Assembly (NCBI GenBank): GCA_963974055.1
Contig: CAXBCP010000023.1
Location: 11,666 to 75,665, forward strand
DNA: 64,000 bases
Source of the DNA: an uncultured Rhodospirillaceae bacterium
Lineage (GTDB): Bacteria; Pseudomonadota; Alphaproteobacteria; MPNO01; UBA830
Reading direction: 5' to 3'
The stretch's first letter is position 1; each line of letters starts with the position of its first letter. The translations under genes and the position numbers were made by a program. Under the pieces are notes generated by a model, which was given only the letters and a program-made list of their open reading frames with translations, was not told the DNA's origin and did not search any database. Shown here piece after piece: positions 3,817-24,899 of the stretch.

Positions 3817-3902
3817 CCGTATATTGATATCGCAGCGATACCGGCGCGGTCCTGTAAGGGCCGGCACGGGGGCTTTTCAACTATCAGATTGAGACCTGGA
3901 GA

Positions 3903-3909
3903 TTGGCTG
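3903..3909 (+). repeat. Left attachment core TTGGCTG
   Basis: Identical to 24825-24831; context GAGATTGGCTG versus GAGATTTGGCTG. Confidence 0.75.
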
Positions 3910-4005
3910 CCCTTCTTGAACACGTATAGAACCAATTGTCTCGCGCCGGAGGCTGAATTTCGCAGGCTCATTCAAGAAATTTCTAATCTCGACGCGGCGG
4001 CATAG
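3904..4005 (+). other. Displaced C-terminal coding segment of the island recombinase (WLPFLNTYRTNCLAPEAEFRRLIQEISNLDAAA*)
   Basis: Open frame starting at the att core TGG CTG, the same two codons the recombinase reads in frame at 24826-24831; has no start codon of its own. Confidence 0.7.
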
Positions 4006-4302
4006 CGGAAATTCGGGCCATGCGCAGACAACGAACGTTTCGAGCCCGTCGACGCCGTTCGACGCTGCGCAGCGAATGACCGCTTCCGGGACAGCCCGAC
4101 GAAAAACGTGTCAAGTCAGGGTGGAGTTTTGCCAAGGGGCTCTGACAAAGCAATCTTAAGCGTCCACACTGGACCTCTTGCGCGGGTCACTATGACCTTC
4201 GTTGGTTTATCTCAAAGCACACAAAAGCTCCTTGCAGGTGGGTAGAGACACCACCTTGGAGAGGACACCGGGATGGGGTTGTAACATAAACATTCTCGCA
4301 GG

Positions 4303-6516
4303 TTACTCGGGCCGAACGATCTTATGGTCGACCAGCGGTCCTTCAAGAATCTTGCTCACGCCGCTCCGCTCATTCGTAGTCGCGATCACGAGCTCCTGAG
4401 CGGCCCTACTCGCCCCAAGATACACGCGGGAAATGTAGCGCCTTTTGGCACCGATCCCCATGCCATCAACCGACCAATCGGCGTCGTCTAGATTTACGAG
4501 AAACACGGAATCAAACTGTAGTCCCGCCACGTATTCCGGCATGCTAAGGACGCATCTCTTCTTTGCGTATCTCAACTCTCGCATGTCATCGCGGGACACC
4601 ACAGTGACCACTTTGTCTTTGACCCTCGATGCCATCATGTACGTCTTGAAGCGCTCTTCGTTCATACAGAGGACTGCCACCTGCCGGCCGCCTCCATCCA
4701 AGGCGTTCGCTCTCCGGTTCGCCTCCTCCAAAACGCTATCGATCATTTCGATGTCGGTCTCGAACTCCCAGAGCTCTGGAACCGGCCCGCTTTCCCGGCT
4801 TGAATTGCCGGAGTATTCTCGAAATTCCCCCTCCAGATCCAGCGCAGGAAAGCTCGCATCCAGCCCGGCGAGCAGCTCGACGATTTCCGGCGTCGACCGG
4901 TATACTTTCTCAAGATCGACCTGTTCGGACGGCCCAATGCCAGGGTTGCGGAACCGCTTTCCGCCCACATTCAGGGCGTTGTCGGAGGTGCTCTGCTTCA
5001 GGTCGTAGGCCATGAGAAGCGGCCACTTCCCGTCTACGCGTGCCCGGGTTGCGAAAAGGTTGTGGAAAACCATCGCCTCAACCCGATTGAAGTAGTGATA
5101 CTCGTCCACGAAAATGGCGTCGAACCCGACGGAATCGCGGAGTTGATCCCATTCGTGCAGGACGAGATATCTTTCGAAATCGGATATCATCTGGTCCATA
5201 CTCAGGAAATTCTCGGCCCGAAGTGCTTGGCGGTATTTCTCGTGAAGTTCTAGAAGCAGCTTCCGATCAGCCTCGGTCTTGAGCTCCATCTGCCATCTCT
5301 CTCGTGTAGTCGTGACATACCGAGCGGCTTCAGTCGTTCCCTTCCGGATTTTCTCCGCATCGAGAATACACGCGAATTCGTTTCCGATTTCCTGAATTAG
5401 AGTGTCGGGCGGATCGTCATCATCGAAGATCTCCAGCAAACTCTCGCATTGTTTGCGGAGCGTAAGCACGAAACGCGGATGCAATCGGATTTCCTTGATC
5501 GCGTCGCGTATTAGCATTGCCTGTATCTCTCGGCCTTCCATTCCGTCTGAGGAGAGTGGGGTAAGGCCCTTTTTCTCGTAGCTTAGCAACTCGCGTGCAA
5601 GCTCGTAGAGCGTGCCGACCCAGAGCTTCGGCTTTCCGTCCACGGTCTGAAGAGACGCCCATCTCTCGGTGGGGTCGAGCGCGTGGAACGTTTGCCTGAG
5701 AACGTCGTGGGCCAGAGCGGAACTGTGCGTCAGGAACGCGAACCTCTTTTGGTTCTCGCCGTCAGCGTCCTCATAGAGGTCCCTCAAGCATTTTACGGCC
5801 ATCGCCTGTGTCTTTCCTGTTCCTGCCGCGCCGCGCAGGCGCACAGGGGCGGAATAGTCTTTTTCGACGAATGCCAGCTGCTCTTTATTAAGCTTGTATT
5901 GGTACCATTCTTGCAGCGTTCCGGACGAACTGAGGTCCAGCTTCTTGGGCATCAACAAGAGGATACCGTATTCTCCGACTGTCGATGTCCGTTCTTTGTC
6001 GTCCTTAACCAAGGCGTCAAGAAACCCTTCCTTGGCACGTTCGTAGACCGTATAGCTAATATTCAAACCATTGAAGCCCTGTGTTTCGGACGTCACTGCA
6101 AAAACGAAAAGGTTGGTGTTGTCGCCCTGCGGCGATTGGTCGAAGTGGAGCCGCGGCCCCCCCGGTCGCCTAGACGGCGCGGCATAGATCGAAAGGAGTG
6201 ATCCCTCACGGTAGGGTTGCCACGCAATCGGCAATGAAATGTTGCGGTCGAATTGTCGCATCCCCACACGGGCGATGCGACTCAGAAGAGCAATCGAACT
6301 GATCTCCGGGCTGAAGATCACCGCGTCGGCGACCACGAAAGCGCTTGTTTCGTCGGCGTCGTCCGTAAGTATATATACGATATCATTTAGTTCGACCTTT
6401 CGAAGACCCAAGGCATTGTCGGGAATATCGAAATTTTCGAACCAAGACTCGTCGATCAGCGCGGAATCAAGCGCAGAGAGAGCGGACCCGACAATAACAA
6501 CCCCCTTATACGCCAT
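4303..6516 (-). CDS. UvrD/REP-like superfamily 1 helicase with an uncharacterised N-terminal region
   Basis: GAAGTGKT (I), FLTHSSAL (Ia), IFVDEYH (II), YDLKQS (III), VYRSTPEI (IV), GLQFDSVFL (V), YLGASRA (VI). Confidence 0.8.
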   Translation of the reverse strand: MAYKGVVIVGSALSALDSALIDESWFENFDIPDNALGLRKVELNDIVYILTDDADETSAFVVADAVIFSPEISSIALLSRIARVGMRQFDRNISLPIAWQPYREGSLLSIYAAPSRRPGGPRLHFDQSPQGDNTNLFVFAVTSETQGFNGLNISYTVYERAKEGFLDALVKDDKERTSTVGEYGILLLMPKKLDLSSSGTLQEWYQYKLNKEQLAFVEKDYSAPVRLRGAAGTGKTQAMAVKCLRDLYEDADGENQKRFAFLTHSSALAHDVLRQTFHALDPTERWASLQTVDGKPKLWVGTLYELARELLSYEKKGLTPLSSDGMEGREIQAMLIRDAIKEIRLHPRFVLTLRKQCESLLEIFDDDDPPDTLIQEIGNEFACILDAEKIRKGTTEAARYVTTTRERWQMELKTEADRKLLLELHEKYRQALRAENFLSMDQMISDFERYLVLHEWDQLRDSVGFDAIFVDEYHYFNRVEAMVFHNLFATRARVDGKWPLLMAYDLKQSTSDNALNVGGKRFRNPGIGPSEQVDLEKVYRSTPEIVELLAGLDASFPALDLEGEFREYSGNSSRESGPVPELWEFETDIEMIDSVLEEANRRANALDGGGRQVAVLCMNEERFKTYMMASRVKDKVVTVVSRDDMRELRYAKKRCVLSMPEYVAGLQFDSVFLVNLDDADWSVDGMGIGAKRRYISRVYLGASRAAQELVIATTNERSGVSKILEGPLVDHKIVRPE

Positions 6517-7363
6517 TATTAGCTACCTCCGAGTTCTTTTGGTCGACCAGCAGTTGGGCCGCCACCCGGCATTCTTCCTCAAATGCTCGCGGCGACCCTA
6601 TCCGCGAGAAAAGAAAGGCCATCTTCTGCACTATCTGGTACCTCAGTCCATCGGAGAACCGACCGACCCTGTAGAAAGCGTGTGGTTGATCGTGAATTCT
6701 GATCTCTGCTATCGATCGAAATACTTCGGTTTCGGGGACGCCGGAGATGTCGCGCAGCCGGACGACGAACCCTTCAGATTTGCTTCCTGGGATGCCGGGG
6801 ACGAACACGTAATCAGCGAAGCCGCCCGGCTGCTCCAAGCAGCGTCGCGCCTCGTCTAGAATCTTTTCTCGCTTCTGCGAAAATGTCTCCGCGCATTTCA
6901 AGAGATCCGAAAGCCCCTCACTGTCGCCGTTCGAACACAAAGCCGCGTTGATAGCGGTGATCCTCGCGCGCAGCTTGACGTCTTCCACACCGATGGTATC
7001 GATAATCTGGTCGGCGCCCTCTTCCTGCATCCACTGCAACAGATCCGCAGTCTCCAGAAGGCGCAAACTAGCATCTTTACTCTTCAAGAGTGAATTCAAC
7101 TGTTCGCAGATGGGGCCGAGTTGCTTTTGTACCAACTTGTCAAGTTGCTCCTTTGCCCAATAGCGCTCGATGAACCTGTCCGCGGGAATGATCTCCATCC
7201 AGGAGATCAGGCTAGAGTTCTTTTTTTGTTCGATGTCGCAATCGGCGTTCAGGATGAAGCCCCATTGAAACTGCTCCTCATTGTCTATTGGGACCGCACG
7301 GCGAATGATGTCGCCCTGCATGAAGTTCTCGTCCTCGGAGACCTCCTGAAGATGGTCAGCCAT
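6506..7363 (-). CDS. Hypothetical protein (QGDI...ILNADCD motif; possibly PemK/MazF-like fold)
   Basis: ATG at 7363 with a strong GAGGAGGGG RBS; 285 aa; overlaps the helicase start by 11 nt; fold call is inference. Confidence 0.7.
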   Translation of the reverse strand: MADHLQEVSEDENFMQGDIIRRAVPIDNEEQFQWGFILNADCDIEQKKNSSLISWMEIIPADRFIERYWAKEQLDKLVQKQLGPICEQLNSLLKSKDASLRLLETADLLQWMQEEGADQIIDTIGVEDVKLRARITAINAALCSNGDSEGLSDLLKCAETFSQKREKILDEARRCLEQPGGFADYVFVPGIPGSKSEGFVVRLRDISGVPETEVFRSIAEIRIHDQPHAFYRVGRFSDGLRYQIVQKMAFLFSRIGSPRAFEEECRVAAQLLVDQKNSEVANNGV

Positions 7364-7714
7364 CAGGACACCCCTCCTCGGCATAGAGCAACAAACAAGG
7401 TCGGGTCCTGCCGAATCCTACCGACTTGAATCGGCAAGATGTCGGGGCGCGACGTACTTGGCAGTAGCGGTGGTGACCACTCGGATTATGCATTAGATTC
7501 GGCATTTAGTTGTGCGGCTTTTGCCAAGTTAGTGCTTCCAATACGTAGCCTCGCCGATGGCACCACGCTTGGCAACCCGGTGTGTATCGGCCTAGTTGGG
7601 ACTAAGAGCCTTACTTCTACAGTCGGAAATGGTTCACTTGGCACAGACAATCGATTTCTGGGCAGGGTTTGTGTCCGGGATCAACCTTATAGCTTTCGGC
7701 ACGACAGCCAAAGT

Positions 7715-7880
7715 CGAGTTTCGGCGATTGGTGAAGGCGTTGTCCGTCGTTTTGCCCGCTGGCGAGAAGTCCAGCGCAACGCTTTTCTGATAGGCTTGCA
7801 GTTCCAGGGCCCGCGAGAGGAAATCGCTGCCCTGATCGACATGGATCGTTTTCGGATAAAGTACGCCAGATAAACCGATC
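7715..7880 (-). pseudogene. IS3-family transposase (integrase core) remnant
   Basis: YPKTIHVDQGSDFLSRALELQAYQKSVALDFSPAGKTTDNAF resembles the IS3 OrfB xDNGxEF...WAY...LDFSRPGKPTDNAF segment; rest of the element missing; limits approximate. Confidence 0.7.
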
Positions 7881-8270
7881 AAACGAGGTTGGGGGCAGCC
7901 AAGGCTCTGGGAGGCGTTACGACAGGGTCGAGGGGATGGCGACCTCTTCGGCCGGAGATCGAGCCTGAACTCAACACAGAAATGCGGGGATGGGGCGATA
8001 CTGCCCGGAAAGGTCTTCCAATTAACAAGCCTCATCTCGATCGGTGTCAGGGGCAATACCACTGGATCGTGAGAGTTTCTGGGTATCTGTAACAAAAAAG
8101 TGGCCCAGATTTAGGGAGGAAGTACCCATTTCCGACTTGAATCGCCGTCTCCGGATCCAGATGCAGCACCCAGCCCTGCGCCTCGTTTTGGTCATTGTTT
8201 AGTAATCGCTATACGATTCGGGGTTGTTAAGTGTAAAGTGCTTTCTAAACAAAAACTGGAGTGAGGGACC

Positions 8271-8627
8271 ATGACTGACGTTAGCGAGAGATTCGGCGCG
8301 TACATACGGGAAAAACGGGAAGAAAAGGGGATCAGTTTGCGGGATATGGCGAGGCAGATCTCGGCGAGTCCCACATTTGTATCGAAGGTGGAAACTGAGG
8401 ACTGGAAGCCTGGCGAGGAAAAGCTGCGAAAGATAGCTCACGTCATCGAGTGCGATGAGGAGGAACTGATTGCGATGGCAGGGCGCGTGCCGTCAGAACT
8501 CTCAGATATCATCAAGCAGCACGCACATCGTCATGAACTTTCGGCATTGCTGCGGACGACACAGGGAATGTCCGCAGAAGAACTTGGAAAGCTGGTTGAG
8601 CAGGCGAAGAAAGCAAAAATGGATTGA
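8271..8627 (+). CDS. XRE family HTH transcriptional regulator (ImmR-like)
   Basis: FGAYIREKREEKGISLRDMARQISASPTFVSKVE HTH_3 signature. Confidence 0.9.
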   Translation: MTDVSERFGAYIREKREEKGISLRDMARQISASPTFVSKVETEDWKPGEEKLRKIAHVIECDEEELIAMAGRVPSELSDIIKQHAHRHELSALLRTTQGMSAEELGKLVEQAKKAKMD

Positions 8628-8678
8628 TTGCCTGCGAAAGTGGGCGCCCCCCGAAGATGAAAATGAGGATAACGAAAT

Positions 8679-9446
8679 ATGTCGATTAAGGTCAGGTATC
8701 TCTCCAAGGACGAGATCGAACTGGAGGCGGAGCTGCTGCTCGCGCAATACGCGGAGACGATCGGTGGCCCCGTGAAGCTGCCTGTCCCGGTCGACGAAAT
8801 AACAAAATATCATCTTGCGCTCCAATTAGAATTTGCCGATCTCCACGATGTTCTCGATGTTCCCAGGCAGCGCAATACGCCCGATATTCTGGGGGCAATT
8901 TGGGTCGATAAGGAAGTTATCCTGATCGACGAAATGCTCGATCCGAATGGTTACCCCTCCATGGCGGGACGCTACCGTTTCAGCGTGGCGCACGAAATCG
9001 GTCACTGGTGCCTTCACCGGGACTATGTTTCAAAGGATACCAGACAAGCTGCACTGTTCGACGCCCCGTCAGAACCGACGGTAATCTGCCGCTCCGGACT
9101 AACGAGAGAGCCGATTGAATGGCAGGCGGATAAATATGCATCCTGTTTGCTGATGCCGCGTCTCAAAGTGCGGGAGATGTGGCAAGAGCGTTTCAACAGC
9201 AAGCGCCCCTTGCTGCTTTCGTCCCTGAAACCGAATGTCGATGTGATGATGCGCGCGCACAATTTGATGTGCGGGCAGGGCAAATCTGAGGTCGCCGCTG
9301 TCAATGATGCACTTTTCGAGGAGGTCTCGAAACCGATTGCCCGACGCTTCGGCGTTTCGCCGTCGGCAATGCGGATACGGTTGGAAGAACTCGGTTTATT
9401 GCTGCGCGAGGCGCCAAAGCAGTCCGCATTAACGGATAGTTTTTGA
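8679..9446 (+). CDS. ImmA/IrrE family metallopeptidase
   Basis: RYRFSVAHEIGHW (HExxH) and EWQADKYASCLLMP motifs; adjacent to the XRE gene. Confidence 0.9.
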   Translation: MSIKVRYLSKDEIELEAELLLAQYAETIGGPVKLPVPVDEITKYHLALQLEFADLHDVLDVPRQRNTPDILGAIWVDKEVILIDEMLDPNGYPSMAGRYRFSVAHEIGHWCLHRDYVSKDTRQAALFDAPSEPTVICRSGLTREPIEWQADKYASCLLMPRLKVREMWQERFNSKRPLLLSSLKPNVDVMMRAHNLMCGQGKSEVAAVNDALFEEVSKPIARRFGVSPSAMRIRLEELGLLLREAPKQSALTDSF

Positions 9447-9470
9447 CTCTTTTTTTGGAAGGATTGTTAA

Positions 9471-9737
9471 GTGTCAACTGAACGATACGCGCAAGCATCA
9501 CCTCAGGCATGTGTCGCGTTTGAGACGTCAGATTTCTATCTGGCCTGTTTCTTGCGCTGTTCAGGATATGCGTTGCTTGATCTCCGGCCAGCAGGTCGTC
9601 GAAAGATATTTGTGTTTAAGGATAGCCCCGAGCGCCCGACCGATGTGCTGTCCTTCTACGGCGACAACACAACCGTCCCGCCGCTCGCATTCTCTTCCAC
9701 CATCAAAGACATGAAGGCGCTGTTATACAATGGATAA
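9471..9737 (+). CDS. Small hypothetical protein (DUF5659-like)
   Basis: TSDFYLACFLRCSGY pattern recalled from mobile-element proteins; GTG start. Confidence 0.6.
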   Translation: MSTERYAQASPQACVAFETSDFYLACFLRCSGYALLDLRPAGRRKIFVFKDSPERPTDVLSFYGDNTTVPPLAFSSTIKDMKALLYNG

Positions 9738-9951
9738 CCATCAGATCATCGAACCGAATAACCACGCCTGCGGCCCGCAGGCTCGCGAAGCTATCGACCG
9801 CCTGATCGAAGTAGTCTTGGACGGATTGCGGCACGGACATTTTCACTGCGCGATTTCGAGTGGAGTCGGAAAGGGCAACCGTCGCGAACTCGTGATTGAG
9901 GCAGGTAAGAGCCACAAGTTTGTTATCCCCGAGAATGAGCTGCGGGGCTGA
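9730..9951 (+). CDS. Small hypothetical island protein
   Basis: 73 aa, overlaps the upstream stop; LDGLRHGHF...RELVIEAGKSHKF. Confidence 0.65.
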   Translation: MDNHQIIEPNNHACGPQAREAIDRLIEVVLDGLRHGHFHCAISSGVGKGNRRELVIEAGKSHKFVIPENELRG

Positions 9952-10076
9952 CAGCGCGAACGAACGGCGATCCCTGGGATTGGGACGCCGAACATGCAAA
10001 TGACAATACGATCCAGCGTTATCGGTGGGAATCCGAGGCCGGAGATCAGAGGCACGGAGCGGCGAAGAGCCGGCCG

Positions 10077-10321
10077 TGAGATCTTCGGTGAAAGCTGCAA
10101 ACGACAATCAGAATGACGACCAGATCGAACGAACCCGTGAGGTATGGCAACCGCGCGTCGGGCGCGACCTGAGCCGCGACGAGGCACAACAGATTGCTGC
10201 CAACGTTACTGGCTTTTTCTCTGTCCTGGCCGAGTGGTCACGGGCCGAACTGCCGATGCCCGCGAACGATAATTCCAACGGGTTACCTCCTGACGACAAG
10301 GGGGTGCGCCATGACCGTTGA
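10077..10321 (+). CDS. Small hypothetical island protein
   Basis: IERTREVWQPRVGRDLSRDEAQQIAANVTGFFSVLAEW; overlaps the primase start; start codon uncertain. Confidence 0.55.
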
Positions 10322-12899
10322 TTACATCGAGATGTCGACAGCCCCGACAGTTTTTCCAATCGAGCTTCCGGAAGCAGGTAAAGGCGGTGAAGCCGGTGCA
10401 TTCCAGATCGGAAATGCCGAATTTATCGATAAGGTTTTCCCGCTGCTGCCCGAAGGCGCCTTTGCAGCAGTCTCGTCAAAGAGCGGCGATCCCGGTCTGG
10501 GCGGATGGCCGGCCTGTCGCGCGGATATCTCGGCCATGACTCTATCCACCGAAACTAACAACTTCATCGGTTGTTCGAGCTTTTATCCCGGCGCTGATGG
10601 TTCTTTCCGGGCGCGTAAAGGCCAGTTTGCCGCCTGCCATTTCCTGATGCTCGACGATCTGGGCACAAAGGTGCATCTGGGTCGACTGGATGGTTTCGAG
10701 TTGTCATGGCTGATCGAAACGAGTCCCGGAAATCACCAGGGCGGGATCATCCTTGCAGAAGCACTTACAGACGGTGCTACGGCAATACGGTTGTTAAATG
10801 CGTTGATTGAAGCTGGTTTGTGCGACGCGGGTGCGACAGGTCCACTGAGCCGCTGGGCGCGGTTGCCGGTGGCGATTAACGGCAAGCCGAAATATGTGGA
10901 TGAGGCCGGCATGCCCTTTCAGTGCCGACTGCTCGAATGGCGTCCCGAAAACCGCTACACGCCGCAGGAGATCGTTGATCAATTACAATTGGAACTTGCA
11001 CCTGCCGGGAGGCCGAAGAAGACCGGTAAGCGGTCCACATCCTCTGACAGCACCCCCCACAGTATCGGTAATGCGAATGACGACGTTCTGACGCCCAGGG
11101 CGGCGGAGAACCCGGTTGTGGCAGCACTGAAGGCGCGGGGCCTCTACAAGACGCCACTGGGGTCCGGTAAGCACGACATTACCTGCCCGTGGGTTCAGGA
11201 GCATACCGACGCGATTGACAGCGGTGCGGCGTATTTTGAACCTGACGAGCACTATCCCGTGGGCGGTTTTTGTTGTCAGCATTCCCATCGCGACAAGTAC
11301 CATATTCGACAGCTGCTTGAATTCCTCTACGTGCGCAACGCAGAGGCAAGGCACAAGCCGCTGATCCGGGTGATCGCCGGCGACCTGCACCGCGTTGTGG
11401 ATGCGGCAGAAAAGGAACTAGCTAACCGTGGGCGGCATTATCAGGCCGGTGGCTTGATTGTTTCTGTCTCGACCGATCCGACCTCAGGTGACCCTTCAAT
11501 CGTGCCTACCAGCGCGCCTGCTTTGACCCGTGATCTTTCAATCGCGGCGACCTGGGAGAAATACGACGGGCGCACAGAAGACTGGGTTCGCTGTGACCCG
11601 CCAGCGCGGCATGCCACAATTCTGTTCGATTCACAGAATTTTCGTTACTTGCCGCCGTTGTCTGGAGTAGTGCGCCAACCATACTTTCGGGAGACCGACG
11701 GAGAACTCATCCGACAGCCCGGTTACGACAAAACGGCGCAGCGTTTCGGTGTTTTCGATGCGCGGCAATTCGTGATCCCGGATCCGACGCCTGAAGCGGC
11801 AGGGGAGGCACTGGCCTTACTCGAAGAACTGCTCTCGGAGTTTCACTTCGTGGCGGCCACGGACAAGGCTGCGGCGCTTGCGGCAATTTTCACCGCGGTT
11901 GTGCGCCCGACACTGCCCTGTGCACCGGCATTTCACGTCCGGGCACCGGTATTCGGGAGTGGCAAGACCTACCTCTGCGAACTGATTGGTGCATTCGCGG
12001 GGCCGGGCGGAAATGCAAAAGTGAGTTATCCTACGAGTTCGGAGGAGGCCACTAAGGTCATCCTGTCGCTTCTGCTGAGCAGTCCGGCGGTCATCGAATT
12101 TGATGACATGGACACCGACTGGATACCGCACGGCACGATCAAGCGTATGCTGACAGCGGAACACATCACAGACCGCATTCTGGGGGTCAGCAAGACCGCG
12201 ACAGTCAGCACCCGCACCCTGTTTCTGGGGTCAGGTAATAACGTCGGCCCGATACGCGATTTATTGCGCCGCGTGCTGACGATTCACATCGACCCGCGCT
12301 GCGCGACACCGGCAACGATGTCCTACAAAGGCTTTCCCGTCGATAAGGTTCGTCAGAGGCGTGGTGAATACGTAGCGGCGGTTCTGACGATCATCCAGGC
12401 ATGGCGGGCGGCTGGTTCACCGTCCGCGGCGGTGGACAGCATTGTCACTTTCGGCGGGGCGTGGTCGGACTATTGCCGGTATCCACTGATGTGGCTCGGT
12501 CACCCTGACCCCGCAACGGCGCTGCTGGAACAGGTCCGCCATGATCCTGACGGCGACGCGCTCGGCTGTCTGATGGCGGAGTGGCATGGTGTCTTCGGTT
12601 CGGCCCCGGTTACTGTGCGCAAGGCCGTTGACGCGGCACTTCGTGACTATCCCAACCTGATTGACGCGATGCGCGAATTTCCGATCGAAGAACGCGGCGA
12701 GATCAACCGCTCGAAACTGGGCTGGCTGCTGAAGAAGAACGCCAACCGGATCGTTAATGACCTTGAGTTCCAGCGGGCAGAAGCTGACGGGCGCACAGCC
12801 TGGCGTGTGGTAGCTGTAAAAACACCGCCTTTACCGGCTTCACCGCCTTCCGCCGGCTCGGTTGGGGAAACTGTCACGGGTTGGAGGGGACGGGTATGA
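10311..12899 (+). CDS. Primase-ATPase replication protein (RepB-like primase N-terminus, Cys/His cluster, P-loop ATPase)
   Basis: MLDDLGTK and LIETSPGNHQ (RepB-type primase), CPWVQEH...FCCQHSH, APVFGSGKT Walker A; ATG at 10311 after a GGGG RBS. Confidence 0.75.
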   Translation: MTVDYIEMSTAPTVFPIELPEAGKGGEAGAFQIGNAEFIDKVFPLLPEGAFAAVSSKSGDPGLGGWPACRADISAMTLSTETNNFIGCSSFYPGADGSFRARKGQFAACHFLMLDDLGTKVHLGRLDGFELSWLIETSPGNHQGGIILAEALTDGATAIRLLNALIEAGLCDAGATGPLSRWARLPVAINGKPKYVDEAGMPFQCRLLEWRPENRYTPQEIVDQLQLELAPAGRPKKTGKRSTSSDSTPHSIGNANDDVLTPRAAENPVVAALKARGLYKTPLGSGKHDITCPWVQEHTDAIDSGAAYFEPDEHYPVGGFCCQHSHRDKYHIRQLLEFLYVRNAEARHKPLIRVIAGDLHRVVDAAEKELANRGRHYQAGGLIVSVSTDPTSGDPSIVPTSAPALTRDLSIAATWEKYDGRTEDWVRCDPPARHATILFDSQNFRYLPPLSGVVRQPYFRETDGELIRQPGYDKTAQRFGVFDARQFVIPDPTPEAAGEALALLEELLSEFHFVAATDKAAALAAIFTAVVRPTLPCAPAFHVRAPVFGSGKTYLCELIGAFAGPGGNAKVSYPTSSEEATKVILSLLLSSPAVIEFDDMDTDWIPHGTIKRMLTAEHITDRILGVSKTATVSTRTLFLGSGNNVGPIRDLLRRVLTIHIDPRCATPATMSYKGFPVDKVRQRRGEYVAAVLTIIQAWRAAGSPSAAVDSIVTFGGAWSDYCRYPLMWLGHPDPATALLEQVRHDPDGDALGCLMAEWHGVFGSAPVTVRKAVDAALRDYPNLIDAMREFPIEERGEINRSKLGWLLKKNANRIVNDLEFQRAEADGRTAWRVVAVKTPPLPASPPSAGSVGETVTGWRGRV

Positions 12900-13447
12900 A
12901 CGCACCCAAAGCTATAATGGAGGCCCGTGCGGCGGGTGTCCAAATCCTCCTCGACGGCGAAGACCTGGTTCTTGAAGCCTCATCACCACCCCCGGAATCC
13001 GTTCTCGACGCACTGTCCCGCAACAAGGTCGGGATTGTCACCCTGCTGCGTCTGGCTAACGACGGGTGGTCGTCCGACGACTGGCAGGCGTTCTTCGACG
13101 AACGCGCAGGCATCGCCGAGTTCGATGCAGGGCAGACACCGGAGCAGGCTGAAACCACCGCGTTCGAGTGCTGCATGGTCGAATGGCTTGATCGCCATTT
13201 ATTCCGTACCGACCCGGGGCGCTGCGCTGCGTGCGGCGAGCCCGACAGGGACGGGCATACCGTCGTTCCCTACGGGGCAGAAAGCCACGGTCACACCTGG
13301 CTTCATCCCGCCTGTCGGGGTGATTGGAACCGGTATAGACGGCAGCAGGCACGGCAGTTCCTGGAAGGCGCTGGGATCAGAGGTCGGTCCGAAGCGACGG
13401 AAAGGACCAAGTTTCCAAACGATCTCGGAAAAAACGGGGGCGCATGA
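12896..13447 (+). CDS. Hypothetical protein typical of primase-downstream modules
   Basis: ATGA-coupled to the primase; FFDERAGIAEFDAG and CAAC...HPAC motifs. Confidence 0.65.
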   Translation: MNAPKAIMEARAAGVQILLDGEDLVLEASSPPPESVLDALSRNKVGIVTLLRLANDGWSSDDWQAFFDERAGIAEFDAGQTPEQAETTAFECCMVEWLDRHLFRTDPGRCAACGEPDRDGHTVVPYGAESHGHTWLHPACRGDWNRYRRQQARQFLEGAGIRGRSEATERTKFPNDLGKNGGA

Positions 13448-14085
13448 TGGGTGGATTCGGGTCCGGGCGGCCCAGTGGATACGGGCGCCAGATTGTGGAA
13501 GCCTGCCGGTCGATCGATGTGAACCGGTTACATCGGGAGGGCTGTCTTGTTCCGGGATGGGGAGGTGGGTGGCAATGGACGTGTGATGGGGAGAAGGTAG
13601 CGTCGATCAATATGCGCGCCGAGGACGACCTGCTGAACCTTTCCTATCGGGTGCGCATCGCCGACGGCGACTGGGAAGACGTGGGGGAGACCGTCCGCAT
13701 CGTCCGCGTACCCTGCCGGTTCGGCGGCACAAGGCCCTATTTCATCTGCCCTGGCGTCGTCGACGGCGCTGTCTGTGGCCGGCGCGTGGTGAAACTGTAC
13801 GGCCCGGGACGTTATTTTCTTTGCCGCCATTGTTACCGCCTTGCGAATGCGAGCCAGAACGAGGAGGCGTGGGACCGGTCACTACGGCGTGCGGGGAAAA
13901 TCAGACGGCGGCTCGGTGGCGAGGATGGGGCTGCGATACCGTTCCCGGCGCGTCCCAAAGGCATGTGGCAACGCACCTATGAGAGGTTGCGCGAGGAAGC
14001 CCTGGAGGCGGAAATTCTGGCCGATGAAGCTTTTATTATGAGAGCCCAACGGCTTCTCAATCATCTAGAAAGATCAAACCGATAA
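13444..14085 (+). CDS. Hypothetical protein (GGFGSGR N-terminus, Cys-rich)
   Basis: 213 aa, ATGA overlap with the upstream gene; RPYFICPG...CRHCYRL. Confidence 0.65.
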   Translation: MMGGFGSGRPSGYGRQIVEACRSIDVNRLHREGCLVPGWGGGWQWTCDGEKVASINMRAEDDLLNLSYRVRIADGDWEDVGETVRIVRVPCRFGGTRPYFICPGVVDGAVCGRRVVKLYGPGRYFLCRHCYRLANASQNEEAWDRSLRRAGKIRRRLGGEDGAAIPFPARPKGMWQRTYERLREEALEAEILADEAFIMRAQRLLNHLERSNR

Positions 14086-14099
14086 AGGAGTTTCCGACC

Positions 14100-14909
14100 A
14101 TGATCGAGACCAATCCAATCTTGCCGGCAGAGGCGGGAGGCACCGAAATCACGCGCTTCAACGCACTCCGGCACGGCATCCTGTCGCGCTACACGGTACT
14201 GCCTTGGGAAGATGCGGACGAGTACCAGAGGCTTCTGGCAGCGCTGGTGGCAGAGCACACCCCGCGGGGGCCGACAGAAGAACATCTGGTCGAGGAGTTG
14301 GCCGGTATCCTGTGGCGCAAACGGCGCCTTAGACTTGCCGAAGCAGCAGTCCACCGGCGCGGGCTGGACGGTACCCTGTGTTCCTATCGTGAGACCGTGA
14401 AGGTGGCGCTGGTACATCTCGACGCTACTGACCAGTCCGAGCGCGTGGTTGATGCTATCCGCGCCACGGCCGAAGAAACAGCCGAAGACATACGCGGGAT
14501 GGAGGAGGACGAGGCGATGACGCGCCGGGCGATGGAGTTGCTCTCATCGTCGCGCAATGATGCCTACGAGACGGCCCTGGCGGCGCTGAGGGCCGACACG
14601 CGGGATTGGTGGGAGGGCACCCTCAACAGTGATCCCGACGAGCTCGACGAGGACGAGGAGCCACCCACCGCCGATGCGGACTCCCTTTGCCGTTTCCTGA
14701 CGCGGGAGATTTTGCCCTGGTATGCGACCCGGCGTAAGGAGCTTGCCAACCGGCCGCTCATCCGCGAGCAGGCCTATGGCGACGCCGTGAATGCGGACAA
14801 GCTGGAACGGCTCGGCCGCTACGAGGTTTATCTCGACCGCAAGATGGAGCGCACGCTCACTATGCTGATCCGGCTTCAGGGTCTTCGGGCCGGTTCAGCT
14901 GACGGCTGA
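14100..14909 (+). CDS. Hypothetical protein with an NALRHG motif (small-terminase-like motif)
   Basis: 269 aa; RFNALRHGILSR near the N-terminus; function is inference. Confidence 0.65.
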   Translation: MIETNPILPAEAGGTEITRFNALRHGILSRYTVLPWEDADEYQRLLAALVAEHTPRGPTEEHLVEELAGILWRKRRLRLAEAAVHRRGLDGTLCSYRETVKVALVHLDATDQSERVVDAIRATAEETAEDIRGMEEDEAMTRRAMELLSSSRNDAYETALAALRADTRDWWEGTLNSDPDELDEDEEPPTADADSLCRFLTREILPWYATRRKELANRPLIREQAYGDAVNADKLERLGRYEVYLDRKMERTLTMLIRLQGLRAGSADG

Positions 14910-15043
14910 TCCGTTTCGCAAAACGGCGCGAACTCGCGGGTCCTTCCTGGCAGCGTTCCTATACGGGCGGGCGTGGCGCGGCGTATCGCTGGCGACTGGA
15001 CTCTATTTTCTGGGAATCCATCGGAATCCGGAATCCATTGCGC

Positions 15044-15063
15044 TTTGGGCCAATTTGGCCAAA
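15044..15063. promoter_or_regulatory. Imperfect palindrome TTTGGGCCAATTTGGCCAAA, probable Phd operator
   Basis: About 30 bp upstream of the phd ATG; Phd-family antitoxins autoregulate through promoter palindromes. Confidence 0.45.
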
Positions 15064-15091
15064 ACTGCTTTAGAGCTAGACGGGGAAACCG

Positions 15092-15295
15092 ATGCAAACA
15101 CTGAGTGCAAAAGACGCGAAATACGGGTTTGGCCGGTTGATCGATTTGGCGCGCGCTGAGCCCGTCGCGGTGGCTAAGCATGGACGCCCCGTTGTCGTCG
15201 TGCTGGCGGTTGAGGAGTACGAGAGGCTGAGGACGCTGGATATGCGAAAGGGCTCGAAAAAGCAGGAGGGCCTGACATCGGAGGAGAACCAATGA
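15092..15295 (+). CDS. Phd/YefM family antitoxin
   Basis: LSAKDAKYGFGRLIDLARAEPVAVAKHGRPVVVV signature. Confidence 0.85.
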   Translation: MQTLSAKDAKYGFGRLIDLARAEPVAVAKHGRPVVVVLAVEEYERLRTLDMRKGSKKQEGLTSEENQ

Positions 15296-15381
15296 TTCTC
15301 AAGCTGGCGCTGCTGGGTGATCGGCTGGTCCGCTATCCAGACCAACAAGTAGGCGATGTTGCCCGTCGGGCGGCTGCTTGA
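15292..15381 (+). CDS. 29-aa small ORF coupled to phd (MILKLALLGDRLVRYPDQQVGDVARRAAA)
   Basis: ATGA overlap with the phd stop and a GGAGGAG RBS; may be a remnant. Confidence 0.35.
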   Translation: MILKLALLGDRLVRYPDQQVGDVARRAAA

Positions 15382-15428
15382 GGCGCTGCGCGAGCAAGAC
15401 CTCGACACCAAGAAAAGCAAGGACGACT

Positions 15429-17438
15429 ATGAATACAAATACCTCCCTGGCCGATTTCATCTGGAAAAACGCGGATGATCTCTGGGGTAATTTCAAGCAC
15501 ACCGATTTCGGCAAGATCATCTTACCTTTCACGCTTCTTCGGCGCCTTGAGTGCGTCCTGGAGCCGACGCGGGAGCAGGTCCGAGAGACGTTCGCTTCTA
15601 TGAAAGACAAGGGGATAGACCTTGATGTCATCCTGCGCACGCAGACCGACTACCCGTTCTACAACACCTCGAATTACGACCTGCGCAGCCTCGGCGCAAC
15701 CCGGACCCGTCAGAACCTCGAGGACTACATTGCCTCCTTCTCTGACAACGCGCGCGTGATCTTCGAACAGTTCGATTTCGCGAACACGCTGGCGCGGATG
15801 GACAAGGCTGGGGTCCTCTACAAGATATGCCAGAACTTCGCCGCCATCGACCTCCACCCGGACGCGGTTCCGGAACGGGTGATGTCCAACGTCTACGAAC
15901 ACCTGATCCGGCGCTTCGGCGCCGAGGTGAACGAGGCGGCCGAAGACTTCATGACCCCGCGCGACGTCGTCCATCTGGCCATCGAGCTGCTGCTCGACCC
16001 GGACGACCAGATGTTCATCGACAACCCCGGCCTGATCCGGACCCTCTATGACCCCACCTGCGGCACCGGCGGCTTCCTGTCGGACGGGATGGAGCACGTG
16101 AACGCGCTGCGCGACCAGTATTCGGTCGCCCCGGTCATCGTCCCCTACGGTCAGGAACTGGAACCGGAGACCCACGCGGTCTGCCTCGCCTCAATGCTGC
16201 TCAAGACCGTCGAGTCCGATCCCGGCCGCGACCTGTCTAAGAACATCAAGCTCGGCAGCACCCTGTCCGACGACAAGCTGGCGAACGACCGGTTCCACTA
16301 CTGCGTCTCGAATCCTCCCTTCGGCAAGAAATGGGAGATGGACCAGGTCGACGTGGTGCGGGAGCATCAGGAAAAGGGGTTCGAGGGCCGGTTCGGCCCC
16401 AAGCTGCCGCGTGTCAGCGACGGGTCGATGCTGTTCCTGCTTCATCTTCTTAGCAAGCTGGAGGCGCCGGAACGCGGTGGCGGGCGGGCGGCCATCGTCT
16501 TGTCCGGCTCGCCCCTGTTCAACGGGAACGCGGGACAGGGCGAATCCGAGATTCGGCGCTATCTGCTTGAGGAGGACGTGGTCGAGGCGATCATCGCGCT
16601 TCCGACCGAGATCTTCTTCCGCACCGGGATCGGCACCTACATCTGGCTCCTGTCCAACAAGAAGCCTGCCGCCCGAAAGGGCAAGGTCCAACTGATCGAC
16701 GCGACCGCGCTCTATGAGCCCATGCGCAAGAGCGAGGGGAACAAGCGCCGCCGCGTCGGGGACGACCAGATCCGCCAGATCGTCCAGATGTATGCCGACT
16801 TCGCCGAGACGAAGGAGAGCCGTCTATTCGACAGCCGCGACTTCGGCTACCGCCGGGTGAAGGTTCTGCGCCCGCTGCGCAAGAAGATCGTGATCTCGGC
16901 CGAGGGGCTGGCGGCGCTGGCGGATGAAACCGCATGGGGCAAGCTCGCGCCCGAAGTGCAGATCGCCTGGACCGCGCTGTTAGAGGACATGATGGGCGAC
17001 GAGCAGGCCTGGAGCTGGGTCGACACGTGGGCGAAGGAAGCGGCAAAGCAGGACTCGGGTCTGGGCAAGGTGAACGCCGCCCTGATCAAGGCGTTCCATA
17101 AATCCTTCGGCCTGCGGGACCCGGACCTCGATCCGGTGCTTGACAAGAAGGGTGAGATCATCCCCGACGACGACCTGACGGATTTCGAGAACATCCCCCT
17201 TGGCACGGACATCCGGGACTACATGGCGCAGGAGGTGCTGCCCCATGCGCACGACGCCTATGTGGATGAGACGTTCCGCGACGACTACGACGGCCAGGTG
17301 GGCGTCGTGGGGTACGAGATCAACTTCAACCGCTACTTCTATGAATATCAGCCGCCCCGCGATCTCGAGGTGATCGACGCCGAGCTGAAGGCGGTCGAGG
17401 CGGAGATCGCCGCGGTGCTGGCGGAGGTGACGGAATGA
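15429..17438 (+). CDS. hsdM: Type I restriction-modification methyltransferase subunit
   Basis: ADFIWKNAD, DFMTPRDVV, YDPTCGTGGFL (SAM binding), VSNPPFG (N6-adenine catalytic motif). Confidence 0.95.
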   Translation: MNTNTSLADFIWKNADDLWGNFKHTDFGKIILPFTLLRRLECVLEPTREQVRETFASMKDKGIDLDVILRTQTDYPFYNTSNYDLRSLGATRTRQNLEDYIASFSDNARVIFEQFDFANTLARMDKAGVLYKICQNFAAIDLHPDAVPERVMSNVYEHLIRRFGAEVNEAAEDFMTPRDVVHLAIELLLDPDDQMFIDNPGLIRTLYDPTCGTGGFLSDGMEHVNALRDQYSVAPVIVPYGQELEPETHAVCLASMLLKTVESDPGRDLSKNIKLGSTLSDDKLANDRFHYCVSNPPFGKKWEMDQVDVVREHQEKGFEGRFGPKLPRVSDGSMLFLLHLLSKLEAPERGGGRAAIVLSGSPLFNGNAGQGESEIRRYLLEEDVVEAIIALPTEIFFRTGIGTYIWLLSNKKPAARKGKVQLIDATALYEPMRKSEGNKRRRVGDDQIRQIVQMYADFAETKESRLFDSRDFGYRRVKVLRPLRKKIVISAEGLAALADETAWGKLAPEVQIAWTALLEDMMGDEQAWSWVDTWAKEAAKQDSGLGKVNAALIKAFHKSFGLRDPDLDPVLDKKGEIIPDDDLTDFENIPLGTDIRDYMAQEVLPHAHDAYVDETFRDDYDGQVGVVGYEINFNRYFYEYQPPRDLEVIDAELKAVEAEIAAVLAEVTE

Positions 17439-18658
17439 GTTACCGGCGCCCCGTTGAGGTGAAGCCCGCCAAAGCGCCGTGGATTGAGGAAATTCCGGCG
17501 CATTGGGATGAGCGCCCCTTCTATGCAGTCGCGAAAGAGCGGCGGTCGAAGAACATTGGGATGAAAGAGGATAACCTTTTGTCCCTGAGCTACGGAAATA
17601 TCATCCGCAAGGACATAAACACGCCGAACGGCCTGCTGCCCGAGTCATTCGAGACCTACCAGATTGTCGAACCGCACGATGTCGTTTTCCGTCTGACCGA
17701 CCTCCAGAACGACAAGCGCAGCCTGCGGTCAGCGATCTGCCCGGAACGGGGGATCATCACGTCCGCCTATCTGGCAGTCCGGTCAGAGGGCGTGCTGCCG
17801 GGCTTCATGAGCTACCTGATGCGGGCCTATGACGTTCAGAAGGTCTTTTACTCGATGGGTGGTGGCCTGCGTCAGTCGCTGGGGTTTGAAGACCTACGCC
17901 GAATGTCGGTGGTCGCTCCGGGACTTGATGAGCAGGCCAACATCGTTGCGTTCCTCGACCGAGAAACCGCCCAGATTGACGGCCTGGTCGAGAAGAAGAC
18001 CCGGTTCATCGCGCTGCTGAAGGAAAAGCGGGCAGCTGACATCATCGAGGCGATATCCCCCAAGGAGGGATGGAACCGCTTCCCCTTCTGGTCTGTAGCC
18101 AATGCGAAGTCGATTTCCGGCCGTCCGGATGTAGATCTTCTGTCAGTCTATCTTGATAGAGGCGTTATTCCGTATTCGGAGGGCGGCGGTTTGGTTCACA
18201 AACCTGCCGAGAGCCTCGAAAAATACCAGTTGGTAGAGCCAGGCGACCTGGTGCTGAACAACCAGCAAGCGTGGCGCGGTTCTCTGGGGGTATCTCTTCA
18301 TCGGGGCATTGTCAGCCCCGCCTATCTCGTCCTGAAGCTGGATAGGGAAAAGCTCGATCCAACCTTCGCAAACTACATGTTCCGAGCTCGACCGTATGTC
18401 GAGAAATTCATGCTTGCCTCGATGAGTGTTGGAGACATTCAGCGGCAGATTAAATGGCCGCACCTGCGAATTGTCCCAGTGGTGGTTCCGAGTGTTACAG
18501 AACAGCGCGAAATTGCTGAGCGCCTCGATAGTGAGGGAAAGCGCATTAATGATCTGATCACGCTAACCGAGCGCAGCATCGACCTACTCCGCGAGAAGCG
18601 TGCGGCACTCATCACTGCCGCCGTCACCGGCAAAGTCGACGTGAGTGCCACACCATGA
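17435..18658 (+). CDS. hsdS: Type I restriction-modification specificity subunit
   Basis: EEIPAHW N-terminus, two TRDs separated by EQANIVAFLDRETAQID...KEKR, C-terminal EKRAALITAAVTGK. Confidence 0.93.
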   Translation: MSYRRPVEVKPAKAPWIEEIPAHWDERPFYAVAKERRSKNIGMKEDNLLSLSYGNIIRKDINTPNGLLPESFETYQIVEPHDVVFRLTDLQNDKRSLRSAICPERGIITSAYLAVRSEGVLPGFMSYLMRAYDVQKVFYSMGGGLRQSLGFEDLRRMSVVAPGLDEQANIVAFLDRETAQIDGLVEKKTRFIALLKEKRAADIIEAISPKEGWNRFPFWSVANAKSISGRPDVDLLSVYLDRGVIPYSEGGGLVHKPAESLEKYQLVEPGDLVLNNQQAWRGSLGVSLHRGIVSPAYLVLKLDREKLDPTFANYMFRARPYVEKFMLASMSVGDIQRQIKWPHLRIVPVVVPSVTEQREIAERLDSEGKRINDLITLTERSIDLLREKRAALITAAVTGKVDVSATP

Positions 18659-21600
18659 GTGACCTCCACCACGAGAAGCATCTCGAGTCCCATATCGTCG
18701 GCAAGCTCGCCGAGGCGGGCTGGCTGGTCGGCACCTCAGGTGCCTACGACACGGACCGCGCCATGTATCCAGAAGATCTGGAGGCCTGGCTGCGCGCCAC
18801 CCAGCCGCAGAAATGGGACCGGCTTCAGGCGATGAACGGCGACAAGACCCTGACGGTCGTTATGGACCGGCTGGAGACAGCGCTGGAAAAACAGGGGATG
18901 GTCCAGACCCTCCGCCGGGGCTTCTCGATCGCCGGCGCCGGTCACCTCGACCTGTCCGAGGCAGCCCCGGAGGACCAGCGCAACGAGAAGGTCCTGCAAC
19001 GCTACGCATCGAACCGGCTGCGGGTCGTGCCGCAGCTGAAATATCACCCGGGCCGCGAGCTCGCCATCGACCTCGGGCTGTTCCTGAACGGCCTGCCGCT
19101 CGCCACGGTCGAGCTGAAGACGGATTTCACCCAGTCGGTCGAACACGCAAAAGCCCAGTACCGGCGAGACCGCCCCCCGGTTGATCCTGTCACGAAACGC
19201 AAGCACCCGCTCTTGACGTATCAGCGGGGTGCGGTGGTGCATTTCGCGATGTCGGACAGCGAGATCTGGATGACCACGAAGCTCGCGGGCGACGACACCT
19301 TCTTCCTGCCGTTCAACAAGGGTGACGATGGCCGGGCAGGAAACCCGGCGGGGGAGGGTGGCGAATACCCGGTCGCCTATTTCTGGGAGGAGATCTGCCG
19401 ACGCGACGCGTTCTTGCGGATTTTTCATAGCTTCGTCTATGTCGAGAAGAAGAACGTGGTGGACCTGAAGGGGAACTGGTCGGTCAAGGAGACGCTGATC
19501 TTTCCCCGGTTCCATCAGTTTGACGCGGTCAACAGGATGATCGCCGACGCGAAGGCGAGGGGACCCGGGCATCCCTACCTGTGCGAGCACAGCGCGGGCT
19601 CGGGCAAGACCTCGACCATCGCCTGGACGGCTCATGATCTGGTGAAGCTACGCCGGGACGACGGGACGCCGATCTTCGACACGGTGATCATCGTGACGGA
19701 CCGGAACGTCCTGGACGGGCAGCTTCAGGACGCGGTCCAGCAGATCGACCACCAGAAGGGGCTGATCGCCGCGATCGACAGGGAGACCTCGTCGAAGTCG
19801 AAGAGCGACCAGTTGAGCGAGGCGATGCTGAAGGGCACCCCGATCATCGTGGTGACCATCCAGACCTTTCCCTTCGCCATGGAGGCAATCCTGACAGAGA
19901 CGTCCCTGCGGGACCGGAACTTCGCAGTGATCATCGACGAGGCGCACAATTCCCAGACCGGGAACACCGCCTCCAAACTGCAAGCAACGCTTGCCCTGTC
20001 TGCGCGCAAGGATGTGGAGGAGATGACGGTCGAGGACATTCTGGTGGAGATCCAGCGAGCCCGGAAGCGCCCGTCGAACGTGTCCCATTTCGCCTTCACC
20101 GCGACCCCGAAGCACTCGACCATGATGCTCTTCGGGCGCCCGGCCGATCTCACCAAGCCCGCCTCGGACGACAACCTGCTGGTCTCATTCCACAAGTACG
20201 AGATGCGCCAGGCGATCGAGGAAGGGTTCATCCTGGACGTTCTCCGCGGCTACGTCCCCTACAAGACCGCCTTCAACCTCGGACAGGAAATCGTCGACGA
20301 GAAGCGTGTTGACGGAAAGGCGGCAAAGCGCGCCCTGGCGAAATGGATGACGCTCCACCCGACGAACGTGACCCAGAAGGTTCAGTTCATCATCGAGCAT
20401 TTCTCGAAGAACGTCGCCCATCTGTTGGACGGGAAAGCAAAGGCGATGGTGGTAACCAGTTCCCGGGCCTCAGCGGTTCGGTACAAGCGCGCCTTCGATG
20501 CATTTATCGAAGCGAACCCGGAATATGGATACATTCGGACCCTTGTTGCCTTCTCCGGCAAGCTGACCGGGCGCGAAGTAATGCACCCTAACGACGATCT
20601 GCTACATGGGGACGTCTTCGTCGTCGAGGAGGACGCCGAGTTCACCGAGGCGAACATGAACCGGGAGACAGGCGGCAAGGACCTGCGCCACGTCTTCGAC
20701 CGGCCGGAATACCGGGTCATGCTCGTGGCGGACAAGTTCCAGACCGGGTTCGACCAGCCTAAGCTGGTCGCGATGTATGTGGACAAGAAGATCGCGAACA
20801 CGGTTGAGATCGTCCAGACCTTCTCGCGCCTGAACCGGACCTTTCCGGGCAAGGATCAGACCTTCATCATCGATTTCGTGAACGATCCGGACGTGGTCCG
20901 GGCCGCATTCGCCCAGTACGACCGGGGCGCGCGGATCGAGGAGGTTCAGGACCTCAACGTCATCTACGACCTGAAGGAATTCCTCGACAACCAAGGGATC
21001 TATGACGAGACCCACATTCTCGACTTTCAGGCCGCCCGTTTTCGGACCGCTGCGTCTGCGGCGACCGGAAAGGACGACGAGGCGGTGCACAAGGAGATGT
21101 ACGCCGCGACCCAGGAGCCGACAGACGCCTACAACCGGCGCCTGTCCGAGCTGCGGGATCGCGCGGCAGCGGCGGAGGACGCTTGGCAGCGCGCGAGGAG
21201 TGCTGGGAACGAAGATGGGATGAAGCGAGCCGATCACGAACGCGAGCAGGTCGAAACGGCGATCGTTTCCCTCACTGACTTCAAGTCAGGCTTGTCCCGG
21301 TTCGGACGGCTCTACGCCTATATCGCCCAGCTGGTAGATTTAGGAGACCCAGACTTGGAGACTTTTGCCGCCTTCTCGAAGCTGCTTGCGAACCGGCTCG
21401 ACGGAGTGCCTGCGGTTGAGATCGACCTGCACGGCATTGCGCTGACCGGGTACGACATCACGGATCGGGAACCGACAAACGAAGGCGAGGACGAGGAGCC
21501 GCCCACCCTCGACCCGGTGAAGGGCGGTGGCGGCGGCTCTCTACCCGGCGCTCTGCCCGTGTACATGCAGGAGCTGATTGAGCGGCTGAACAGCCTGTTT

Positions 21601-21888: not shown

Positions 21889-21930
21889 GTTGGAGCCCCG
21901 AAATAAATTGAGATTCTTCAAGGCAGCAGA

Positions 21931-23151: not shown

Positions 23152-23224
23152 GACTGAAAACTAACTGAAGCATGCTCCAGGCGCGGGGATAGCCTCTGAG
23201 AAGCTTGAGCGATAAGTATTCAGG

Positions 23225-23276
23225 GTTGTGCTGGGCATATTGTTTAGTATATACTAAACAATATGCCCAGCACAAC
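23225..23276. repeat. Perfect 52-bp palindrome covering the recombinase promoter and start codon
   Basis: GTTGTGCTGGGCATATTGTTTAGTAT|ATACTAAACAATATGCCCAGCACAAC, 26-bp arms, no spacer. Confidence 0.95.
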
Positions 23277-24858: not shown

Positions 24859-24899
24859 GCGGGTCAGAGCCACTCGTTCTACCGTTAAACTATTCCCCA
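24826..24899 (-). tRNA. tRNA-Gln (anticodon CTG)
   Basis: Reverse complement TGGGGAATAGTTTAACGGTAGAACGAGTGGCTCTGACCCGCTTAGTCCTGGTTCGAATCCAGGTTCCCCAGCCA folds as a cloverleaf with a GTTCGAATC T-loop and encoded CCA. Confidence 0.95.

Follow-up and report, generated by a model that had tools for sequence, protein, structure and literature searches.

The 64,000-nucleotide stretch of DNA analysed here (hereafter the window) contains a 20.9-kb genomic island (3904..24831), present in its integrated form and inserted beside a tRNA-Gln(CTG) gene. Its large serine recombinase (LSR) has the core of the attachment site inside its own reading frame. In this arrangement, one recombination event rewrites the C-terminus of the enzyme itself and, as strong comparative evidence suggests, toggles an ssrA-like tag. 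If true, this would constitute a one-gene feedback between the state of the DNA and the stability of the enzyme. The features of the integrated element are as follows:

3904..24831, no strand: integrated island, delimited by a dip in GC content, domain searches and the empty site in relatives
3903..3909, no strand: left junction core TTGGCTG, identical to the right core, with the crossover placed within the core
24825..24831, no strand: right junction core TTGGCTG, matching the left core
24826..24899, minus strand: tRNA-Gln(CTG), the attB target, intact, its CCA end forming the core
23263..24858, plus strand: large serine recombinase, integrated isoform of 531 aa, assigned by Pfam domains and a PHROG integrase match
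24832..24858, plus strand: tRNA-derived replacement end GNLDSNQD with stop codon, running antisense through the acceptor and T arm of the tRNA
3904..4005, plus strand: severed 3' end of the LSR gene (P' arm of attP), 33 codons WLPFLNTYRTNCLAPEAEFRRLIQEISNLDAAA plus TAG, homologous to contiguous tails

Identity between the two island junctions is limited to 7 bp (TTGGCTG), which correspond on the opposite strand to the CAGCCA 3' end of tRNA-Gln; the crossover dinucleotide could not be pinpointed by scanning the attP consensus for dyad symmetry. The G+C content is lower between the junctions than outside them. In relatives of the source genome, the left flank lies approximately 60-800 bp from tRNA-Gln with no island in between, the flank adjoining the tRNA being too variable in these genomes to set the junction to the base by them alone. 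In the source genome assembly, only attL and attR occur; contigs with attP or attB are absent, as is any further copy of the family. Besides the LSR at its right end, the island carries a UvrD-like helicase pair, an HTH repressor with an ImmA-like protease, a primase-like replication protein, a type I restriction-modification system and a PLD nuclease, as judged from Pfam and PHROGs.

Pfam recognizes Resolvase, Recombinase and Zn_ribbon_recom domains in the product of 23263-24858, which identify it as a large serine recombinase. The catalytic domain matches PF00239 at 4e-23 (residues 19-165, motif YARVSSKEQ), both PF07508 and PF13408 match as well, and the AlphaFold model of a homologue (P0003) contains long helices at 358-454, corresponding to a coiled-coil insert. 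In the integrated state, the protein ends in ...KKEIWLGNLDSNQD before the stop codon (also given as ...SVIKKEIWLGNLDSNQD before the stop), the last residues reading ...WLGNLDSNQD, and the final 11 LSR codons fall inside tRNA-Gln(CTG) in antisense orientation. When base 24825 is joined to base 3904, the frame is kept and a 554-aa protein results, which ends ...KKEIWLPFLNTYRT...LDAAA; the attP sequence at this circle junction reads …GAGATTTGGCTGCCCTTC…. The attP core is represented by the codons W-L (TTGGCTG), about 33 codons before the end of the LSR gene. Because the core lies inside the gene, the state of the DNA decides which protein is made, and the tail encoded at 3904-4005 would be translated only in the circular island. 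The original prediction had assigned the end ...LDAAA to the excised form and ...NQD to the integrated form, and the sequence at 3904-4005 and 23263-24858 agrees with both assignments. It had also proposed that excision attaches a degron and that integration removes it. This interpretation is supported in part, every element of it that sequence can address being upheld: the att core is located within the ORF, excision would restore a tail ending in Ala-Ala, and integration swaps in an acidic end derived from the tRNA.

The circular state of this element family exists, with an intact tail-bearing gene. Two contigs from two samples (JGI metagenomes 3300073648 and 3300073502) are 100% identical circular permutations of one another. 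The circle measures 18,674 bp and its source contig 18,801 bp, which leaves a terminal overlap of 127 bp; overlaps of this kind are left by assemblers on circular molecules. An intact 551-aa tail-bearing LSR is encoded on the circle, followed by the HTH and ImmA-like pair. The same layout was seen in a contig of 15.5 kb, the ends of which split an hsdR gene, and in one further contig. From the primase-like genes on the circular relatives, it can be supposed that the circle may replicate.

With the joined protein as query, thousands of homologues were retrieved at about 70-77% identity. Of the 120 best homologues, 105 pass into a tRNA-derived end directly after the W-L (or W-R) codons; these integrated-type ends include WLGD, WLGN, WLGDLDSNQD and WLPGPDSNQRPSG, each followed by a stop codon. 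A contiguous tail of the type WLPFL.TYRTMC.AP...FR..L.E...... was present in 11 of the 120, or in 12 when a protein with an internal deletion (P0095) is included, and the tail at 3904-4005 has contiguous homologues in P0003, P0104, P0115 and P0117. Searching 5.8 billion sequences with the 42-residue tail alone gave no match, E-values being hopeless at that size. Tail loci were collected by a pattern-based search built on an alignment of ten contiguous tails, in which one genome per species was scanned. This search yielded 144 confirmed tail matches in at least 144 species genomes, nearly all of them alphaproteobacterial and a few betaproteobacterial, and 80 loci were kept for analysis. In none of these 80 genomic loci does a complete LSR frame run directly into the tail from upstream, and in most of them the tail is preceded by unrelated flank; species-representative assemblies thus show the severed state, as does the window. 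The complete genome of Kordiimonadales IMCC3096 illustrates this state at both ends, its tail lying 16 kb upstream of an LSR which terminates with WLGD and a stop codon in tRNA-Gln(CTG), with TGGCTG as the core. Only 3 tails were found in a scan of viral contigs, from which it follows that the elements are mostly not phages.

Two variations were noticed among the homologous loci. In nine of the 80, a short in-frame 3' remnant of an LSR (...AKSEI) precedes the tail; such remnants may be scars of tandem insertion at the same tRNA and subsequent deletion. Furthermore, two loci (L098 and L102) and three proteins (P0008, P0027 and P0057) have ends of the form WLC(W/T/S)QS..., which are not tRNA-like, and ARAGORN found no tRNA at L102, the sole locus of this subgroup that was run. 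The subgroup seems to use a different, non-tRNA target.

Conservation of the tail was assessed on 75 distinct tails, and the analysis at the DNA level on 69 distinct sequences of 33 codons. The length is exactly 33 aa in 65 of the 75. The conservation of the terminal Ala-Ala among homologues had been set beforehand as a test of the original prediction, and this conservation was indeed seen: 54 of the 75 distinct tails end in AA (LAA in 34, FAA in 7, IAA in 5, VAA, PAA and AAA in 2 each, MAA and DAA in 1 each), with a dN/dS (NG86) of approximately 0.06 at the terminal AA, where synonymous sites are saturated. Four tails end in LVA. The AA is absent from 21 tails, including those of the 18.7-kb circle (HAG) and of P0040 (GLS). 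As for the background, AA ends 3.3% of the ORFs of at least 300 aa in the source genome and 1 of the 105 integrated-form homologues. The four alanine codons GCC, GCG, GCT and GCA are all used at the terminal positions, and the stop codon, which can be TAG, TGA or TAA, is always codon 34 in the 69 sequences of 33 codons. Within codons 13-33, the third positions reach an entropy of 1.4-1.9 bits, the first and second positions are conserved, and dN/dS is 0.18 at a pS of 0.68, which is saturated. No variation is seen at positions Y8, R9, T10, C12 and P15 and hardly any at M11 and A14, and most of F19, R20, L23 and R27 are near-invariant as well; several conserved codons vary freely at the third position or, in the case of Arg, at the first. 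The coding pattern, together with the fixed position of the stop and the variety of stop codons, indicates that the tail, and above all its Ala-Ala at the extreme end, is kept by strong selection on the protein. Such selection requires an unbroken gene, as present in the excised state or in a tandem array.

It could be argued that the tail is no functional protein at all, its frame being open by chance or as a by-product of the P' arm DNA of attP. Some constraint at the DNA level beside the core is indeed visible, for the synonymous divergence is reduced in codons 1-12 (pS 0.41 versus 0.68), which fits an added constraint from the P' arm. On the other hand, codons 13-33 lie beyond the half-site of a serine integrase and still display the coding pattern and the low dN/dS given above; the stop position is fixed in spite of three different stop codons; and contiguous full-length genes occur on circular elements. 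We regard this explanation as extremely improbable, and the codon pattern and dN/dS essentially refute it. Two further candidates were considered and rejected: i) a minus-strand ORF (3735-3971) as the source of the conservation, since the codon-position pattern fits the plus frame only, and ii) a chromosomal ORF fused upstream of the tail, since the in-frame stretch is closed by a TAA at 3856-3858.

What, then, does the selected tail do? We think it fairly probable that its end acts as an ssrA-like ClpXP degron that depends on the integration state. In the source genome, the tmRNA tag is ANDNDLALAA, which ends in LAA, and clpX is present with a score above the curated cut-off. The asterisk mark given by ARAGORN was taken to mean that the tmRNA gene is permuted and consists of two pieces, as is typical of Alphaproteobacteria. 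The last five residues of the tail family follow the pattern [L/M/F]-[R/D/Q]-[L/F/I]-A-A, where position -3 is L, F or I in 58 of 69 tails, position -4 is most often R and position -5 is L, M or F. An unbiased screen of C-terminal pentamers in E. coli found that potent degrons are ClpXP-dependent and ssrA-like, with the consensus [L/F/Y/W]-[L/A/R]-L-A-A, in which the terminal Ala-Ala is required without being enough by itself (PMC10862746). The family pentamer fits this E. coli consensus, the specificity of the host ClpX being assumed from other bacteria. With the ssrA tag and ssrA-like degrons (PMC7652416, PMC10862746), the tail shares the hydrophobic-Ala-Ala-COOH C-terminus (the host tag ends in LALAA); it differs from the ssrA tag in being genetically encoded instead of added by trans-translation, its presence being toggled by site-specific recombination. 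The copy in the window, LDAAA, has Ala at -3 and Asp at -4, residues disfavoured in the E. coli screen relative to Leu and Arg, and the AAA end is rare in the family (2 of 75 distinct tails). Judging from these residues, LDAAA is probably a weaker tag than the ...LRLAA or [L/M]-R-L-A-A ends of the family.

Several observations were counted against the degron. The AA is lacking in the 21 tails mentioned above, that of the circle included. The whole tail is conserved and not its end alone, so that stability may not be its main function and a second role is suggested. Moreover, the benefit of placing a degron on the very form that must integrate is not obvious. AlphaFold, run on an alignment of 48 sequences, gave a poor overall model (pLDDT 64, pTM 0.31), in which the tail has low confidence (pLDDT <55) and two short helices. 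The tail comes after all canonical LSR domains and a variable linker rich in Ala, Thr and Ser. A low-confidence tail behind a variable linker is compatible with an exposed terminus and proves nothing; the model shows helical propensity in the tail, which is not confidently docked.

As a rival explanation, the tail could be a module of activity or directionality as in IntP/IntX of phage Mx8, the tail-bearing enzyme being proficient in integration and the tail-less one altered (reduced or excision-competent). The terminal AA would then belong to a binding helix, and the two isoforms would be equally stable. Purifying selection on all 33 residues would suit such a module, as would the five invariant residues, several of whose codons vary synonymously, and the two helices predicted with low confidence; in Mx8, a C-terminal swap alters integrase behaviour (PMC6070905). 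The tail is situated beyond the canonical LSR domains and the variable linker, however, and is not confidently docked. In addition, a binding helix leaves unexplained why the stop follows directly after the AA position in 65 of 75 tails, and why the last five residues match both the ClpX consensus and the host ssrA tag. We consider this explanation possible, albeit clearly less probable than the degron, with which it can coexist. Alternatively, the LAA end could recruit ClpX as a remodeller, which would strip the integrase from the product synapse, so that tRNA-Gln would regain a free 3' end and the reaction could no longer be reversed. ClpX is known to remodel a recombination complex in the case of MuA. 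The C-terminal conservation and the consensus match apply equally to this possibility, and the tag is borne only by the isoform that carries out integration; nevertheless, the proposal is pure inference, and its supposed need for disassembly of the LSR product complex is hypothetical. We therefore deem it unlikely.

Whichever isoform is made, its synthesis appears to be under the control of the island itself. The relevant features are:

23225..23276, no strand: perfect 52-bp palindrome, candidate operator, covering the LSR start codon
8271..9446, plus strand: HTH_31 repressor (8271-8627) and its Peptidase_M78/ImmA-like partner (8679-9446), assigned by Pfam domains

In four relatives, the centre of the palindrome (GTTTAGT-N4-ACTAAAC) is conserved directly before the LSR start. 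Both here (8195-8252) and in those relatives, the promoter of the HTH gene is flanked by GTTTAG and CTAAAC half-sites. The 52-bp palindrome is probably a shared operator through which the island repressor controls the LSR and HTH genes; the LSR mRNA may be leaderless. In the circular relatives, the HTH/ImmA pair directly follows the LSR tail, with the operator situated about 5-25 bp past the stop codon of the tail. In the window, the HTH repressor gene (8271-8627) is intact; it is separated from the junction by 4.3 kb and lies clear of attP.

Combining these elements, we propose a model in which the ClpXP degron is coupled to the state of the DNA. As the sequence shows, the island inserts at the CCA end of tRNA-Gln by means of an LSR whose attP lies inside its own gene. 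The circle encodes the 554-aa enzyme, with a flexible linker and the 33-residue tail, which has a hydrophobic-Ala-Ala-COOH end in most relatives and LDAAA here; the integrated element encodes the 531-aa enzyme, whose end (...NQD) is dictated by the tRNA. According to the model, an LAA-type end would mimic the host ssrA tag (ANDNDLALAA) and turn the circle-form integrase into a substrate of ClpXP. The level of this integrase would be kept low and tied to the protease capacity of the host, while the integrated isoform would escape ClpXP turnover. The N-proximal part of the tail (YRTMCxAP...FRR.LE.IR) has probably a further role, for example as an extended degron, an adaptor site or a module affecting recombination. 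Transcription of both isoforms would probably be gated by the HTH repressor of the island at the palindromic operator on the LSR start codon. We hold the explanation as a whole, i.e. a state-dependent tail combined with a ClpXP degron, with moderate confidence.

That the tail also helps to set the direction of recombination is speculative. No recombination directionality factor (RDF) had been recognized in the island from its sequence, and Pfam and PHROGs likewise revealed no excisionase or RDF among its small ORFs. The RDFs of serine integrases share no common family and escape detection by homology, so that their apparent absence means little. One may imagine this widespread family of integrases as sensors of DNA state. 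The circle would make a short-lived, integrating isoform, the chromosome a stable tail-less isoform poised for excision, and the direction and timing would be set partly (in some elements wholly) by the isoform and the ClpXP capacity, and not by a dedicated RDF alone. We find this extension rather doubtful.

Two phage systems resemble the arrangement described here. In Mx8 (Tojo et al. 1996; Magrini et al. 1999), attP is located inside the integrase gene and integration at a tRNA gene provides a new 3' end, giving rise to IntP and IntX (PMC6070905, PMC4383910). In both cases the att core lies in the ORF of the recombinase and the state of the DNA alters the enzyme, and here this recurs in the homologues. 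The Mx8 integrase is, however, a tyrosine recombinase, so that our serine recombinase is an analogue and not a member of that system. Mx8 swaps part of the catalytic domain, whereas a short appended tail is exchanged here; the effect reported for Mx8 concerns activity and specificity and not proteolysis, and no ssrA-like end is described. In mycobacteriophages BPs, Brujita and Charlie, attP also lies within an ORF, and when the phage integrates, the encoded protein loses a C-terminal ssrA-like tag and becomes stable (Broussard et al. 2013; PMC3694055). A C-terminal tag also makes the level of the BPs-type Int responsive to host proteases such as ClpXP (PMC3694055). The common feature, at the sequence level, is that integration removes a predicted C-terminal tag from the product of the attP-spanning gene. 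In the BPs-type phages, however, the split gene encodes the repressor, whereas here it encodes the recombinase, and their Int is a tyrosine integrase that keeps its own tag after integration.

Canonical large serine integrases (phiC31, Bxb1, A118/LI, TP901-1 and SprA of SPbeta) have their direction set by a separate RDF, and serine integrases are valued in genome engineering for their unidirectionality. The recombinase of the island resembles them in its combination of a resolvase domain, a recombinase domain and a zinc ribbon with a coiled-coil insert, and possibly also in the very short identity between attP and attB, but their attP lies outside the int ORF and here it lies inside. To our knowledge, none of them has been described as changing its isoform on integration or as targeting the CCA end of a tRNA. 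As to how natural elements control the level and direction of serine integrases, we know of a few phage cases only, in all of which a separate RDF is responsible. Genomic islands of Dehalococcoides specific for ssrA, described by McMurdie and colleagues in 2011, are said to carry serine recombinases and to occupy the 3' end of a tRNA-like gene. Those islands target tmRNA, and both their lineage and the recombinase clade differ from those considered here; we know of no tail swap or degron reported for them. In 2014, the authors of Islander noted that no serine recombinase was known to target a tRNA gene (PMC4383910). Our literature search yielded no account of a serine integrase in which integration swaps the tail or a degron. 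As far as can be judged from the sequences, a serine integrase here unites the IntP/IntX design of Mx8 with the removal of a tag as in BPs. Control that depends on integration, as in Mx8 and BPs, would be extended to serine integrases and to defence islands that are not phages.

The homologues also reveal that islands with tRNA-targeting serine recombinases form a large class, for the most part without annotation. At the end opposite the tRNA, the island bears a duplicate of just 6-7 bp of this gene, both in the window and in Kordiimonadales IMCC3096. With a duplication this short, island finders that seek a displaced tRNA fragment would probably miss the whole class.

A few further observations concern the remaining content of the island. 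The helicase pair (4303-7384, minus strand) consists of an atypical UvrD-like helicase, with 737 aa and a weak match to PF00580, and an overlapping 292-aa partner for which no Pfam match was found. The pair separates the severed tail from the conserved HTH/ImmA core; at this place the circular relatives possess either nothing or other cargo. It likely represents an insertion of defence cargo. Between the helicase module and the HTH gene, a 153-aa ORF (7634-8095, minus strand) contains a DQGS.F...DNA..N-like stretch; judged by eye, it looks like a remnant of the catalytic core of an IS3-type transposase. Finally, transcription of the LSR gene converges on tRNA-Gln and enters the tRNA antisense (24826-24858), and expression of the integrated LSR isoform could interfere with that of tRNA-Gln, or vice versa.
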